From Candidatus Thorarchaeota archaeon (GTDB lineage: Archaea > Asgardarchaeota > Thorarchaeia > Thorarchaeales > Thorarchaeaceae), in contig JBHLRZ010000015.1 in assembly GCA_048882045.1 (NCBI GenBank), forward strand, positions 1-64,000: 64,000 nucleotides of DNA, read 5' to 3'. Every line of letters starts with the position of its first letter. The first letter of the stretch is position 1. Positions 5,947 through 14,568 of the stretch are shown here, piece after piece. The notes beneath the pieces are model-generated. The model did not search any database and was not told where the DNA came from. It worked only from the letters and a program-made list of their open reading frames with translations. A program made the translations under genes and the position numbers.

Positions 5947-6897
5947 CTAAGACTGGAGCTTTGTAGCTCCAGTTCGTTCTTCTTTCAATGGATTTTCCTG
6001 AGGATAGAGGACTGCCTCTTTCAATCTTACAAGTGTGTATGTTGTCTTTGTCCTACCTGTATAGGTCAGAAGAGGATATTCCTTTGCCAGATGAAATCTA
6101 AGTGGGAAGGGAAACTCCGAATGTAACTGACTCAATATCTCATTCATAACATCCTCGAAGTGAACTGTGTCAGATACATGTATATCTTGAATCCATTTTT
6201 CATCGAGTAAGGGCATGTCCTTGATTACATATTGGAAATAGTAGTACGATGTATAAAAGATGAGTGAGAGGGGCACAATGCCAAATCCTGTCAGTACATA
6301 AACTGTAAAATCTGAAAACATCCAAAATAGTAAGATGATTGAGGTCAGTAGGAAAAAGGCGGAACATCGAAATGTCTCTCGTTTCATCCTATGTATATCA
6401 GACTTGATTTCACTGATAGTAGAGGAAGGCCATAAGAACAAACCAGTAGTCGATCTAATGAACCGAAGATAGTTTCTCTCTTTCATTCCCAGATTGTAAC
6501 TGGCATCAACGCGCTTTTCGTAATATGGAGCGGGGGATTCCAAATCATCCGGTTGTACAATTCGAGAATCGAGAAACATGATTGCATCAGTGATTGTGTT
6601 TCTATTGAGTCCATTGTAGCAATACTGTTTCAGTTGCGAACGATGCATCACATATGCTCTGAATAGTAGTATAATGCCGAGCAAAGATGCTGCTATACCC
6701 AGAATTTGAATTGGACCGAATGCGAAATTCGTTAGTAACCAAGGGAACCATCCAAAGAGGGCTAAGAATATCCCTATTGGCAGGTCAGAACGATGGTAAA
6801 ACTCCTCTTCATATACAGAGGGATATTCTTTTTCAAGCCACCTTTCGAACTTGGGAAACCGTTTGTCACCTTCCACCACGAATCTCCACATATCCAT
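5947..6897 (-). CDS. Hypothetical membrane protein (about 4 TM, two hairpins)
   Basis: 316 aa ORF with two pairs of hydrophobic helices. Confidence 0.65.
   Translation of the reverse strand: MDMWRFVVEGDKRFPKFERWLEKEYPSVYEEEFYHRSDLPIGIFLALFGWFPWLLTNFAFGPIQILGIAASLLGIILLFRAYVMHRSQLKQYCYNGLNRNTITDAIMFLDSRIVQPDDLESPAPYYEKRVDASYNLGMKERNYLRFIRSTTGLFLWPSSTISEIKSDIHRMKRETFRCSAFFLLTSIILLFWMFSDFTVYVLTGFGIVPLSLIFYTSYYYFQYVIKDMPLLDEKWIQDIHVSDTVHFEDVMNEILSQLHSEFPFPLRFHLAKEYPLLTYTGRTKTTYTLVRLKEAVLYPQENPLKEERTGATKLQS
5952..5986 (+). terminator. Hairpin plus T-rich tract after porB, overlapping the 3' end of the convergent gene
   Basis: ACTGGAGCT-ttgt-AGCTCCAGT followed by tcgttcttctttc. Confidence 0.55.
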
Positions 6898-10594: not shown

Positions 10595-10633
10595 GAAAAA
10601 TAGAAGGGGTGCAATCCGACTTAGCGGATTGCA
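10595..10633 (-). terminator. Terminator of the GTPase operon
   Basis: Perfect 9-bp inverted repeat TGCAATCCG-acttag-CGGATTGCA (10610-10633) followed on the minus strand by CCCCTTCTATTTTTCC. Confidence 0.6.
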
Positions 10634-10652: not shown

Positions 10653-11186
10653 CTATGCGAGTAAGTCGGAGTGCTTCTCAAGTATAATCCTTGTGGCAGC
10701 CTCGAACATCTCATTCACGCCTTCACCAGTCTTGGCTGATACTTCCATGCATATTGCCCCATACTGACTCGCCATCTCATTGGCGTCCTCTAGGGTGACA
10801 CCAGAACCGTTCTCTCGCTCGTCGATCTTGTTACCGACGAAGATTATCTCACAGTCTGGAGCGTTCTCCTTCAATCGGTTAATCCAGTCGGTGAGTCTCT
10901 GAAGCGAGAAGAGGCGCGTAGCATCGTAGACAGCAATAGCAATCCGTGAGCCTCTGAAGTAGTCGGATACGACATCTCGGAATCGAGGTTGGCCGCCAAG
11001 ATCCCAAAGCATGAGCGTGACATTGGCATTCTCGACCTCCATCTTCTTCGAAGCAAAATTGACTCCTATTGTCATCTTCATCTCATCGTCAAATCGGTCC
11101 TCAGTATAACGGAGCGTGATGCTGGTCTTGCCCACGCCACCTTCTCCTATGAGCACAGTCTTGAAGATTGGTAGTCTCCCTGCCAA
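10653..11186 (-). CDS. Rab-like small GTPase (Ras superfamily)
   Basis: G1 GEGGVGKT, G2 TIGVNF, G3 WDLGGQ..F, YFRG, G4 GNKID, G5 SAKTGEGV; no C-terminal Cys. Confidence 0.95.
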   Translation of the reverse strand: MAGRLPIFKTVLIGEGGVGKTSITLRYTEDRFDDEMKMTIGVNFASKKMEVENANVTLMLWDLGGQPRFRDVVSDYFRGSRIAIAVYDATRLFSLQRLTDWINRLKENAPDCEIIFVGNKIDERENGSGVTLEDANEMASQYGAICMEVSAKTGEGVNEMFEAATRIILEKHSDLLA

Positions 11187-11199
11187 ACCACATCACCTC

Positions 11200-12567
11200 T
11201 TAGTTTAGGGTACCAAGGAACCGATCTGCACGACCGGTGACACCAAACCACCAGACTCCGAACGCGCTCAGAATGAATGCTGATGAGAGAAGTGTTACGG
11301 CATTACCACCTGCTGTTCCTAGGATGAGGAAAACGACACCTAGGGATAGAAAGAGGGCTCTGTTACGTCCTGGTGTTCCAGCTTTTCTCATTCTCCACCA
11401 GAGTAGACCATAGAGTCCGAGGGGGACTATTGTCTGGAGAATACCAGAAACAGCCATGACAACACCCCGATTTGGAATTGCATCTGGGAAGATTTGAGCA
11501 GTCCATCCGCTGAGCATCAGGAAGAATGGCGCAGCCAGGATTAGTATTGGGAGAAGTAGAGCTCTTTTCCAGTCTAATGCCACAATCGAGCTCAAGTTGA
11601 GAAGCATTGGAGCAATGAGACCTAGCATTAGTGCAACATATTCTGCATTGAGTCCAACTATGAATTCAGTATGGTTCAATGCCACCGTTAAGAATGAGAA
11701 TCCACCAATAAAGAAGAACAAACCTAGTGTAAATGTAGCAGGATTTCTACTGTTACTCCATCTAGTAAACGCATAGGCAGCAGTTCCAATGGAAAGAATT
11801 GAAGCAATGGCAATGAAACTCACTGAAACCATAGATGCGATGTCAACGACTAATGGAGATACAAGTAGGTAGGCCATGAAGTATAACAATGAGCTAATGG
11901 TGAAACTATATGTTATGAGTTCTCCGCCAATCTTTGACTCTGAGCGAATCAACCCTGTAATTAGTAGTGCAGGTCCATAGAGACGAAGTGCAAGCACTAT
12001 AGCAACCGCTTCAGGTGCTGTGAAGGTCGTAGCAATCAGAATCAGAGGATAGGTCAGCGAGAGCGTAGCCAAAGCAAAGCTTGTGATCCTCCTCGTCGAA
12101 TATGTCAGGTATGTGAAGAGACCAAACGGTATGCTGAAGAGAACCACGGCAAAGAAGTTGACCGCATAGTCCGTGAATCCACCAAGTATTGTACCTGCCC
12201 CAAGCATTGTTTCGCCAACAGCGACCACAACCATAACACCAATGACAAAGAAGGGAAGAATGGCTAGTCTTCTCGATCCCATAATCATCAGAGCAGATAC
12301 CATTAGAAGTCCAGAGCCAAGAATAGCGGAAATATACCAGTAGACTTCAAGCTCGCTTATTCCAGAGCCAAAATAAAAGTTGACTAGCGAGGTGAGTCCC
12401 AGGAAGAAAATACTGACTGTGGCAACCCATAGCGGGCGACCAAAGTGTTTCTCTGCGGGTGGGAGGTTCTTGACTCGATTACGCGTAAATCTGGCTAGCA
12501 ATAGGGTACCAATGAATAACCCGATTGCGGTCATTAGTTCCGAAGAATATTGTACGACTAGTTGCAT
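11200..12567 (-). CDS. Polytopic membrane protein, about 15 TM, internal 7TM duplication
   Basis: About 15 hydrophobic segments by eye; LLMVSALMIMGSRRLAILPFF matches LLNLSSIVALDWKRALLLPIL; SIPFGLF matches IVPLGLY. Confidence 0.8.
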   Translation of the reverse strand: MQLVVQYSSELMTAIGLFIGTLLLARFTRNRVKNLPPAEKHFGRPLWVATVSIFFLGLTSLVNFYFGSGISELEVYWYISAILGSGLLMVSALMIMGSRRLAILPFFVIGVMVVVAVGETMLGAGTILGGFTDYAVNFFAVVLFSIPFGLFTYLTYSTRRITSFALATLSLTYPLILIATTFTAPEAVAIVLALRLYGPALLITGLIRSESKIGGELITYSFTISSLLYFMAYLLVSPLVVDIASMVSVSFIAIASILSIGTAAYAFTRWSNSRNPATFTLGLFFFIGGFSFLTVALNHTEFIVGLNAEYVALMLGLIAPMLLNLSSIVALDWKRALLLPILILAAPFFLMLSGWTAQIFPDAIPNRGVVMAVSGILQTIVPLGLYGLLWWRMRKAGTPGRNRALFLSLGVVFLILGTAGGNAVTLLSSAFILSAFGVWWFGVTGRADRFLGTLN

Positions 12568-12578
12568 TTATTGCACCC

Positions 12579-12968
12579 CTAAAGCATCTTAGATGCCCAT
12601 TCATTTGCGCGTTTCATTGCACTCTGTGCCTCTTCTGCAGCCCTCTTGATCAGGTTGATTGTCTCGTCCGTGATGATTTCTCCAAGGGTACCCTTGCAGA
12701 GCTCACTGATCTTGGTGTTCAATTCGGTAGCATTCTTGTCATTCTGATCATGGATTGTGACCAGGAAGACTCGATCTGTCTTGGAGATGATTATACGATA
12801 GTTCTCAAGAGAGAGTTCACTGACGCTCTTGCCAGATATCTTCTTGCTATACATTTGAATAGCGGAAAGAAATCCCCCAAAAAGAGCCTCGTCTATCTGG
12901 AAATCTCCAATCGGAATTGAGGCGATGGTTTCACCGCCCTCGTTCACAACATATACGCTTTGGATCAA
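12579..12968 (-). CDS. Stand-alone longin-domain protein
   Basis: IQSVYVVNEGGETI...DEALFGGFLSAIQMYSKKISGKSVSELSLENYRIII, typical Asgard longin pattern; TTG start at 12968 preferred (track start 13001 overlaps upstream gene). Confidence 0.8.
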   Translation of the reverse strand: MIQSVYVVNEGGETIASIPIGDFQIDEALFGGFLSAIQMYSKKISGKSVSELSLENYRIIISKTDRVFLVTIHDQNDKNATELNTKISELCKGTLGEIITDETINLIKRAAEEAQSAMKRANEWASKML

Positions 12969-12982
12969 TATTTCTGCATCCC

Positions 12983-13249
12983 CTAGAAACTGTCCATCCA
13001 CTTCTGAGCTTTGTCAACAGATCCTTCATCTTCGACAACAGCTCCAGCAAGTTCGACATCTCGAATAGTGAATTTCTTGTCGACGAATAGAATCACATTG
13101 TGACCTTTGTTGCATTTTGCAGGTACTAAAACAGGAACACGTTTGGCGTTGATGATTGAGTCCTCGTCAACCGTTATTCCTTGAATTGCATCTCTACAAT
13201 CTGGGCAAGGAACTGTGTCCAGTGTCTTTTTTCCCATTTTAGTCACCAC
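12983..13249 (-). CDS. Small Zn-ribbon protein (CPDC...CNKGH)
   Basis: 88 aa; CxxC and CxxxH pairs; first gene of the GTPase operon. Confidence 0.75.
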   Translation of the reverse strand: MVTKMGKKTLDTVPCPDCRDAIQGITVDEDSIINAKRVPVLVPAKCNKGHNVILFVDKKFTIRDVELAGAVVEDEGSVDKAQKWMDSF

Positions 13250-13280
13250 TTGGCAGATACACTCTGCAATCTTGCGCAGC

Positions 13281-13306
13281 TAATTTCGCGCTCCATTGCG
13301 AAATTA
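13281..13306. promoter_or_regulatory. Inverted repeat in divergent promoter region
   Basis: TAATTTCGC-gctccatt-GCGAAATTA; related TGAATT-gcgaaa-AATTCA at about 13354-13371. Confidence 0.45.
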
Positions 13307-13455
13307 ACAATGAATAGCCCCTAATATTCCTATATTAACCAATTTCTTATGTATGAATTGCGAAAAATTCAATAAATCGAAAGAGTCTCGCATTTTGGAC
13401 GGCAAAAGTTATCAGTTGTATTGATTCGCGCAGGAACCTGCTTGAGTGATGATAT

Positions 13456-13719
13456 ATGAAAGCCTACATTCTGATCAAAACCGTCGTTGGGCAAGAGGAC
13501 ACTGTTATGCAAGACGTCCTGAAGCTGTCTGTGACTGAGGAGGCACACAAAGTCTTCGGTGCATATGACATTGTTGCTGAGGTTAGAGGTCGGGACATGG
13601 AAACTCTTGTCGAGATCATCACAGGCAAACTGAGAATGATTAAGGGGATAGAGGACACCGAATCTTTACTCGTGATTGACAGTGAGATAGATATGACCTC
13701 TACGAGTCTTGGTTCCTAG
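13456..13719 (+). CDS. Stand-alone Lrp/AsnC ligand-binding (RAM) domain protein
   Basis: KAYILI...VFGAYDIVAEV...IKGIEDTESL; no HTH. Confidence 0.88.
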   Translation: MKAYILIKTVVGQEDTVMQDVLKLSVTEEAHKVFGAYDIVAEVRGRDMETLVEIITGKLRMIKGIEDTESLLVIDSEIDMTSTSLGS

Positions 13720-13791: not shown

Positions 13792-14568
13792 ATGAAGGCT
13801 CTAGCAAGATCTCCGTACATGCTGATGTTGAAAGACGAATCCGGCGAAGTAAATACTGTCCAGCTGGATGCGGCATTAGTGAATAGCGAGAATGCAATCA
13901 TTGTCTTGGACGAGTTCAATGATACATGTTGGGCGTGGGTTGGTAGAAATGTCAATATGCCCACGAGAATGCATGCGTTAAGAATTGCACGAGGACTTCA
14001 AAAATCTGGACATCAGGTGGGTGTGACCACTATCGGTCTCAATTGTAGTAGATTTGTTGAGATGATGGAAAAGGACGATTCAGACCAAGATGTTGCTGCA
14101 GCAATAGTAGAATTCAAGGGAGTATTAGAAGGCAGGTGGAGCTTCGATGATGGAGTTCTCGCACACAGAGGCGAGGGCAAGGTCGAGGAACCAATTGCTG
14201 GTGCTCCAAAGAAGAAGCTACTTCCGCCAGAACCGACACCCGAACCTATTGCAGGAGCACCTGAAACACCGACACTGGTGGCCGAAACGATAGTTGATAA
14301 ACCATCGACTCCCGCTGTTTCAGCCTCACTTGCTGAAAAGAAGATGGCCTATCTGATGCTTTCAGTAACGAGGAATACAGAACTGGTGTACACTGAACGA
14401 TTCGAGAAGGGTGGAAAGAAAGGCCTGAAAATTGAGTCCCCAGGAATTATGGTCATTGAAGCACTCTTTGATGGGGACCAACTCGCAATCACACCAATGG
14501 ATTTTGGTGGATCAGAAATCGCCTCCAAGATCAAGACAGAGTACGAAGGTTTTGTTAAGAGACTCTAA
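13792..14568 (+). CDS. Gelsolin-domain protein with Pro-rich linker and C-terminal domain (1DGelX-like architecture)
   Basis: LVNSENAIIVLDEFNDTCWAWVGRNVNMPTRMHALRIA fits gelsolin repeat consensus (LNS.D.FILD....W.W.G......A...A). Confidence 0.75.
   Translation: MKALARSPYMLMLKDESGEVNTVQLDAALVNSENAIIVLDEFNDTCWAWVGRNVNMPTRMHALRIARGLQKSGHQVGVTTIGLNCSRFVEMMEKDDSDQDVAAAIVEFKGVLEGRWSFDDGVLAHRGEGKVEEPIAGAPKKKLLPPEPTPEPIAGAPETPTLVAETIVDKPSTPAVSASLAEKKMAYLMLSVTRNTELVYTERFEKGGKKGLKIESPGIMVIEALFDGDQLAITPMDFGGSEIASKIKTEYEGFVKRL

Follow-up and report, generated by a model that had tools for sequence, protein, structure and literature searches.

The nearest described system to the gene set analyzed here is the actinobacterial conservon, which consists of the CvnA histidine kinase, the CvnB roadblock protein, the small protein CvnC of unknown function, and the MglA-type GTPase CvnD (conservon and Mfp operon; PMC4316618). 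Conservons occur in many copies per genome (PMC4316618), and their products, in the primary work as it is summarized there, assemble into a membrane-associated complex that was compared with G-protein-coupled systems (Komatsu, 2006, cited in PMC4316618). A four-gene set of parallel architecture is present on the (−) strand at positions 10653–13249 of a 64,000-nucleotide (nt) window of Candidatus Thorarchaeota archaeon (GCA_048882045.1; contig JBHLRZ010000015.1, positions 1–64,000 of the forward strand). In the order of transcription, the genes encode a small protein with a CxxC...CxxxH motif (ZnR), a longin-fold protein (LONG), a membrane protein with two seven-transmembrane (7TM) bundles (MEM), and a Rab-like small GTPase. 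The set is a real, conserved, and accessory four-gene module of some Asgard lineages, and it probably constitutes a self-contained, membrane-attached small-GTPase switch, with LONG in the role of guanine nucleotide exchange factor (GEF) or GTPase-activating protein (GAP) and MEM in that of anchor or sensor. A search of the literature, incomplete in its coverage, found no paper describing this cassette.

The cassette is an architectural analogue of the conservon and not a member of that group, because the architecture is parallel but every component differs. Both are four-gene operons with a membrane sensor-type protein, a protein of the roadblock/longin superfamily, a small protein without an assigned function, and a GTPase of the Ras superfamily, and both are found in several paralogous copies per genome. 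However, MEM is a twin 7TM protein without a kinase domain, whereas the conservon has a histidine kinase; the platform protein has the longin instead of the roadblock topology; the small protein is of the Cys/His zinc-ribbon type, has no Pfam match, and is not CvnC; and the GTPase is Rab-like, not of MglA group 2, and is encoded in Asgard archaea. The bacterial pair of the Ras-like GTPase MglA and the roadblock-dimer GAP MglB offers a second comparison, in that the GTPase gene adjoins that of a roadblock/longin-superfamily partner binding the switch regions of the GTPase (in the cassette, by a modelled contact), and in that MglB structures match LONG with Z of 9.4–9.8. MglB nevertheless forms a homodimer of the roadblock type and has an N-terminal helix, whereas LONG lacks this helix and has the C-terminal helices of longins; moreover, MglA is not Rab-like, and no 7TM or zinc protein is linked to the pair.

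Most genes for eukaryotic signature proteins (ESPs) of Asgard archaea are not in conserved neighborhoods, and an Asgard operon is known that comprises genes for a LAMTOR1-like roadblock protein, a Rab-like GTPase, and a DENN protein (Liu et al., 10.1101/2020.10.19.343400). This operon and the present cassette are among the few conserved Asgard neighborhoods in which genes for a Rab-like GTPase and a protein of the roadblock/longin superfamily occur together. They differ in that the cassette has no DENN gene and the DENN operon no 7TM or zinc-ribbon gene; furthermore, the cassette was found in only three lineages and not in most Asgard archaea. In MK-D1, GTPase genes do not as a rule share operons with genes for roadblock, longin, or TRAPPC3 proteins, and the pairs are not predictable from the genome layout (Tran et al., PMC10933270).

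Conservation of the gene set was assessed in 301 Asgard genomes, and about 35 cassettes were inspected in three Asgard lineages, namely the Thor family (f1), a second Asgard family (f12), and Atabeyarchaeia (f13). Among the 301 genomes, MEM matches were found only in these lineages (38 of 76 genomes of the Thor family, 3/19 of the second family, and all 3 of Atabeyarchaeia), and full-length, tailed ZnR proteins have the same restriction. A comparison of the tables of these searches showed that all 56 of the 56 best ZnR matches (E ≤ 2.4e-26) are followed directly, in the same orientation, by a LONG match. Where a MEM match is not truncated at the end of a contig and LONG coordinates are listed, MEM comes directly after that LONG. 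By itself, a LONG-like domain is widespread in Asgard archaea (273/301 genomes); only the tailed, paired forms of ZnR and LONG belong to the cassette. In cassettes of the same genus with the order ZnR–LONG–MEM–GTPase, MEM identity falls to 32% and that of the other three proteins is about 70%. The same order recurs in other Thor genera, in the second family, and in Atabeyarchaeia (WXG44381–44383 in the latter), where MEM identity is about 25–31% and the flanking genes are quite different. A paralogous cassette type has the order GTPase–ZnR–LONG–MEM, and the GTPase gene thus remains adjacent despite its changed position; in some copies it is on the opposite strand, and some cassettes are tandemly duplicated. 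The linkage is therefore more than synteny, and because the arrangement recurs in about 35 inspected cassettes across three Asgard lineages, it is not due to chance.

A first-pass annotation, made from the letters of the window alone, had read the locus as an operon coupling a duplicated 7TM protein, a longin protein, and a zinc-ribbon protein to a Rab-like GTPase without a prenylation Cys, and had named loss of gene order across Asgard genomes as an outcome that would speak against a joint module. Gene order is conserved in the three lineages, and each of the four protein assignments stood up, that of LONG at the level of the fold and that of ZnR as a conserved motif of the zinc-ribbon type, as described below.

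Several copies depart from the regular arrangement. One genome (G195; L045:4951–6285) lacks MEM: its ZnR of 86 amino acids (aa) retains the tail, its LONG of 119 aa is without the Trp tail, and 170 nt separate LONG from the GTPase gene; it looks as if one deletion had taken the 3′ end of LONG together with all of MEM. In the source genome, contig C7 (54468–55417) carries a remnant of a cassette of the GTPase–ZnR–LONG–MEM type, in which a close GTPase paralogue (E 1e-71) is followed by a ZnR-like open reading frame (ORF) without the Trp tail; LONG and MEM are missing, and the remnant is followed by the genes found in relatives (L011, L012) beside the intact cassette. Tandem partial duplications, with a second LONG directly after ZnR–LONG–MEM–GTPase, are present at L039:5118–10019 and L040:5659–9073, the former also with a second MEM. 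Two back-to-back cassettes occur at L047:2661–9026 (G094), one with a divergently oriented GTPase gene; the other GTPase (6195–6719) has an in-frame stop, which may reflect a pseudogene or an assembly error. In the second family, a further small GTPase gene (L049:1244–1798, G110; Pfam Arf, Ras, and Roc) is located 1.7 kb upstream of the cassette, with an aminotransferase gene between them, and is preceded by a gene for a 320-aa protein without a family.

The GTPase of the window (177 aa; 10653–11186, − strand) matches Pfam Ras with an E value of 2e-43, above the cut-off, and Pfam Arf and Gtr1_RagA with only 2e-14 and 3e-07. Its nearest solved relatives are Rab6B (6e-36), Rab35, and Rab14, and a ‘Thorarchaeota Rab’ (7ezb) matches at 2e-32; the Atabeyarchaeial orthologue carries the NCBI annotation ‘Rab family GTPase’. 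The G1–G5 motifs are complete (GEGGVGKTS, T39, WDLGGQ with the switch II catalytic Gln, NKxD, and SAK) and are conserved in 24 cassette copies, the copy with the in-frame stop (L047:6195–6719) having been excluded from the alignment. By sequence, the protein is thus Rab-like rather than Arf-, Rag-, or MglA-like. No C-terminal prenylation Cys is present in its tail (ending ILEKHSDLLA) or in the tails of 23 cassette-linked relatives, and because the tail is free of Cys in all 24 copies, the sequences exclude prenylation for the whole cassette GTPase subfamily. The source genome, a 3.6-Mb assembly, encodes about 25 small GTPases. In a phylogenetic tree, 17 other GTPases of this genome are set apart, by a split with 100/98 support, from two long-branch rows and all those GTPases of the three lineages that are linked to cassettes, and a single clan of cassette GTPases was not rejected by the approximately unbiased (AU) test (p 0.31). 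The cassette GTPases form a distinct subfamily.

LONG (129 aa from a TTG codon; 12579–12968, − strand) has an open frame that extends back to 13001, and the 129-aa length is that of the version annotated in most databases. Its AlphaFold2 (AF2) model has a mean predicted local distance difference test score (pLDDT) of 86 and a predicted template modelling score (pTM) of 0.80. DSSP assigned strands to residues 2–8, 14–19, 51–54, 57–64, and 67–74 and helices to 27–45, 80–91, and 101–128. The resulting β-β-α-β-β-β-α-α topology, without an N-terminal helix, is that of a longin domain. The best Foldseek matches are the δ and ζ subunits of COPI, the σ and μ subunits of adaptor protein (AP) complexes, TRAPP Bet5/Trs23, and LAMTOR, and VIA-align gave Z of 11.7 for δ-COP (113 aa, 2.9 Å), 11.0 for Trs23 (117 aa), and about 10.4–10.8 for AP μ/σ. 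These longin matches cover the whole domain and are aligned from chain residue 1–2, whereas chains of the roadblock type (LAMTOR2, MglB) align over only 91–97 core residues, after their N-terminal helix. A roadblock (MglB-type) identity for LONG was rejected, given the absence of the N-terminal helix and the presence of two C-terminal helices. At the sequence level, LONG matched no Pfam family at E ≤ 1 except for a chance-level VP24 row and no NCBIfam family, and its profile gave nothing below E 0.06 among the sequences of the Protein Data Bank (PDB), with chance-level rows only. In the alignment of LONG proteins, the invariant parts are a surface of the N-terminal hairpin and helix and a C-terminal RAxEWASKML tail.

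Eukaryotic longin Rab-GEFs (TRAPP Bet5/Trs23, Mon1–Ccz1, and Fuzzy–Inturned) share with LONG the longin fold (Z 11.0 for Trs23 and 9.8 for Fuzzy–Inturned), a Rab-like partner, and, according to the model described below, a contact on switch I, the interswitch, and switch II. In contrast to them, LONG is a single-domain protein without detectable sequence family membership, and the cassette contains no genes for the partner subunits (TRAPPC3-like, tri-longin architecture).

The physical relationship of the soluble proteins was approached with one three-chain complex model of LONG, ZnR, and the GTPase, which was built with our own alignments and in which the GTPase was scored against LONG plus ZnR. 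The ipSAE (interaction prediction score from aligned errors) was 0.61 (median of 0.65, 0.61, and 0.22), and the best of three controls scored 0.00. A value of 0.61 is reached by 58 of 80 solved complexes and by 2 of 110 mismatched pairs, a calibration that is only a rough guide for a three-chain model with our own alignments. The three runs share at least 51% of their contacts, with a partner pLDDT of at least 73. The confident contacts join LONG residues 9–17, 26–44, and 97–101 to GTPase residues 2–9, 30–46, 57–61, and 71–80, that is, on the GTPase side, the N-terminal strand, switch I, the interswitch, and switch II. The predicted LONG surface includes 10 of the 12 invariant N-terminal positions (Asn9, Gly12, Glu13, Thr14, Asp26, Leu29, Gly31, Gly32, Phe33, and Met39), and the invariant GTPase residues within the predicted surface are Lys9, Phe32, Gly41, Trp61, Tyr76, and Gly79. 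The model supports, but does not demonstrate, binding of LONG to the switch regions of the GTPase. Of the interactions that the first-pass annotation had suggested for complex modelling, that of LONG with the GTPase was predicted in this single model, and no confident contact was listed between ZnR and the GTPase.

MEM (455 aa; 11200–12567, − strand) is predicted to have 15 membrane helices, arranged as 7 + 1 + 7, with one linker helix between two 7TM bundles (AF2 model; pLDDT 83, pTM 0.77). In a 35-sequence alignment, one half matches the other with hhalign E values of 3e-12 (local) and 7e-14 (global), compared with 0.1–0.3 for reversed-sequence controls, and MEM is therefore a true internal tandem duplication; this comparison supersedes an earlier one with 10 close sequences, which was weak (E 1e-3, probability 20%). 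Helical bundles can reach Z of about 13–14 without kinship, and against this background VIA-align gave, for residues 235–452 and GPCR (G-protein-coupled receptor)-type 7TM structures, a best Z of 16.1 (ADGRL3, 199 aa, 3.9 Å), with adhesion and other GPCRs spanning Z of 16.1 to 10.4 among the matches listed and GPCR-type bundles making up all 50 of the 50 rows listed. Residues 1–211 gave Z of 11.8 and 11.4 for GPCR-type 7TM structures. Both modelled halves are thus predicted to be seven-helix bundles in the arrangement of receptors, a likeness of fold only. MEM has no Pfam or NCBIfam match and no membership in a GPCR class or in a family of prokaryotic 7TM sensors, and the whole model has no Foldseek match at E ≤ 0.001, the domain-level signal coming from VIA-align only. 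Its profile retrieved only 62 clusters from 1.84 billion representative proteins, comprising full-length proteins of about 445–500 aa and shorter fragments, and matches in the ESM Atlas include prokaryotic 7TM sensor modules (7TMR-DISM), 7TM proteins of the ceramidase/PAQR type, and GPCRs.

From the charges, the positive-inside rule would give each bundle an outside N-terminus and an inside C-terminus. Three conserved basic motifs would then be on the cytoplasmic side, of which two follow the fifth helix of their bundle (TRRITS, helix 5; WWRMRKAGxPGR, helix 13) and the third, TGRxDR, is C-terminal; the invariant columns of MEM are mostly Pro, Gly, Arg, Tyr, and Trp. Compared with 7TM receptors (GPCRs and the prokaryotic 7TMR-DISM and HisKA_7TM sensors), MEM is alike in that each half models as a seven-helix bundle, for which this rule predicts the N-terminus outside and the C-terminus inside, and in that its closest alignments are to adhesion and other GPCRs, with 7TMR-DISM sensor modules among the Atlas matches. 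It is unlike them in having two bundles per chain and no sequence family, and in lacking both an extracellular sensor domain and a fused output domain; furthermore, the linked G protein is a monomeric Rab-like GTPase, which would be reached, if at all, via the longin protein.

ZnR (12983–13249, − strand) has 88 aa if translated from GTG at 13249 and 84 aa from ATG at 13237. The latter is likely to be the true start, because a GGTGA Shine–Dalgarno motif precedes it and the N-termini of orthologues match. In 22 cassette copies, Cys15, Cys18, Cys46, and Trp84 are invariant and His50 is kept in at least 90%, and the two conserved ligand pairs (CxxC...CxxxH) qualify the protein as a putative zinc ribbon by motif. 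ZnR has no Pfam or NCBIfam family, and its look-alikes in the ESM Atlas are Asgard-only clusters without a Pfam family (the Atlas model has low confidence, with a pTM of 0.52). A tail-less form of the Cys/His domain was matched in all 68 of the 68 searched genomes of another large Asgard family (f9), where it is in open frames of about 200–290 aa (e.g., G141:C53:58203–58367 and G273:C30:156060–156293). The domain also forms the N-terminus of 197-aa proteins in the Atlas, and Thor genomes encode it as stand-alone proteins of 72–75 aa. Given its tail-less occurrence in all 68 genomes of that family and in the stand-alone Thor proteins, the zinc module predates the cassette and is in broader use.

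ZnR and LONG both end in a short, Trp-containing helix motif (DKAxxW...), which is conserved in both proteins in all three lineages and has the form DKAxxW(M/F/I)xx(F/L) in ZnR. Examples of the tail are DKAQKWMDSF, DKTKGWFESF, DKARKWIAEL, and DKAKGWLGNI in ZnR and RANEWASKML, AAKEWGKKVF, DRVASWAEVGL, and DKAKIWAEYGL in LONG. Since there are two equivalent tails and two equivalent MEM bundles, there may be one tail-docking site per bundle. The two degenerate copies, in which MEM and the LONG tail are lost together (G195) and in which a GTPase accompanies a tail-less ZnR (C7), fit tail docking but do not test it.

From the gene structure, folds, internal duplication, conserved linkage, and distinct GTPase subfamily described above, the following mechanism can be proposed. 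The GTPase, having no lipid anchor, would be bound by LONG on the surface composed of switch I, the interswitch, and switch II, and LONG would from this position control the nucleotide state of the GTPase as a GEF or GAP. Longin and roadblock platforms control GTPases in TRAPP, Mon1–Ccz1, and MglB. ZnR would act as the obligate companion of LONG, and the Trp tails of the two may dock the soluble proteins onto MEM, which, with its two equivalent seven-helix bundles and their conserved, putatively cytoplasmic basic loops, would supply the membrane address. MEM could in addition contribute ligand- or lipid-dependent input as a sensor, in which case the signal would run from MEM to the GTPase. The module of membrane sensor, GEF/GAP, and GTPase that the first-pass annotation had postulated is thus partly supported. 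The more specific version, an archaeal receptor-coupled G-protein system in which a twin 7TM receptor responds to a ligand or lipid and controls nucleotide exchange of its dedicated Rab-like GTPase via the Trp-tail helices of LONG and ZnR docked on its two cytoplasmic faces, is quite unlikely to be correct in all these respects.

Several observations weigh against the membrane-attached switch. About half of the searched Thor-family genomes have no MEM match (38/76 have one), and the module is therefore accessory. G195 keeps ZnR, LONG, and the GTPase without MEM, and MEM is therefore not strictly indispensable for the retention of the other three genes. The score of the complex model may derive from likeness to solved complexes of longin or roadblock proteins with GTPases, one of the three runs was weak (0.22), and no confident contact between ZnR and the GTPase is listed in the three-chain model. 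Finally, the 7TM likeness of MEM is one of fold, without a sequence family, and middling Z values are easily attained by helical bundles.

The linkage data fit equally well with a flow of information in the reverse direction, in which MEM is an effector (a transporter, a channel, or a membrane-embedded lipid hydrolase) switched by the GTPase, and LONG and ZnR regulate the GTPase. The first half of MEM resembles alkaline ceramidase and 7TM proteins of the hemolysin-III/PAQR type in the ESM Atlas (template modelling [TM] scores by row of 0.55 and 0.65), and Foldseek with the whole MEM model weakly matched proteins that combine a transporter with a 7TM part, such as LYCHOS (E 0.1). By sequence, however, MEM matches no catalytic or transport family in Pfam or NCBIfam, the conserved His/Asp metal site of the PAQR/ceramidase type was not seen among its invariant columns, and its best structural matches are bundles of the receptor type, so that MEM as an effector seems rather unlikely. 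The top structural matches of LONG raise a different question, as these are the longin domains of COPI δ/ζ and AP σ/μ. LONG could accordingly be akin to an adaptor or COPI longin of the σ/ζ or μ/δ kind in a sorting or coat-like module, where the GTP-bound GTPase would recruit LONG and ZnR to the membrane and MEM would be a cargo or membrane-shaping partner; the short C-terminal motifs of ZnR and LONG are also of a kind that adaptors use or read. We consider such a module very unlikely, in that none of the inspected cassettes has a large adaptin, coat, or solenoid gene linked to it, the Z scores for longins of adaptors and of TRAPP and for Ragulator roadblocks differ by no more than 1, and the modelled interface covers the switch regions of the GTPase as regulator platforms do.

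That the four genes are merely neighbors by descent and have no joint function would be in keeping with the origin of most copies from one family of related genomes, in which synteny alone is expected. Such an explanation is hardly credible in view of a linkage that survives reordering of the genes, inversion of the GTPase gene to the other strand, duplication in tandem, and movement between very different genomic surroundings in three lineages, with MEM identity down to about 25% across linked copies, ZnR–LONG adjacency in 56/56 cases, and a GTPase subfamily of its own.

Asgard genomes encode dozens of small GTPases and dozens of longin/roadblock proteins, and in the cassette one switch is explicitly matched with its candidate regulator, with another small partner, and with a membrane protein. 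The predicted LONG–GTPase interface lies on invariant, mutable residues, and the proteins are small enough to be expressed. The cassette bears on how GTPases without a lipid anchor reach membranes in Asgard archaea, and it raises the question of whether the coupling of seven-helix receptors to Ras-superfamily switches predates the origin of eukaryotes. If true, the receptor-coupled version of the mechanism would mean that the prokaryotes most closely related to eukaryotes have an equivalent of 7TM-to-GTPase coupling (GPCR–G protein, LYCHOS/Ragulator–Rag).

The layout of the operon in the window was as the first-pass annotation had given it, with four co-directional genes, gaps of 11–14 nt, and a single hairpin terminator (confirmed by the ORFs, the sequence, and RNA folding). 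The intergenic gaps are 14, 11, and 13 nt, and each contains a ribosome-binding (Shine–Dalgarno-like) motif of the GGTG/GAGGTGA type. The terminator-like element (10596–10633, − strand) consists of a hairpin (10610–10633) followed by a C/U-rich stretch with U5 at 10596–10600. The hairpin has a 9-bp stem, a 6-nt loop, and a folding energy of −13 kcal/mol, begins 20 nt past the stop codon of the GTPase gene, and is more stable than shuffled sequences (z −2.53; 3/200 shuffles equally good). A promoter/terminator scan with a σ70 model, which is bacterial and not valid for archaea, did not call it, because the U run begins more than 2 nt beyond the stem. The promoter of the operon is presumably in the divergent intergenic region at 13250–13455, between the operon and an AsnC-type gene on the (+) strand, where an AT-rich TTAATATA is located about 65 nt upstream of ATG 13237.

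This divergent gene (13456–13719, + strand) encodes an 87-aa protein that consists of an Lrp/AsnC ligand-binding domain only (Pfam 4e-12), without the DNA-binding part, and the gene at 13792–14568 (+ strand), also divergent and upstream of the operon, encodes a 258-aa protein without a Pfam match. The pair is absent beside GTPase-first cassettes and in both other lineages, and adjoins ZnR-first cassettes in several Thor genera (L002–L010, L041, and L046).

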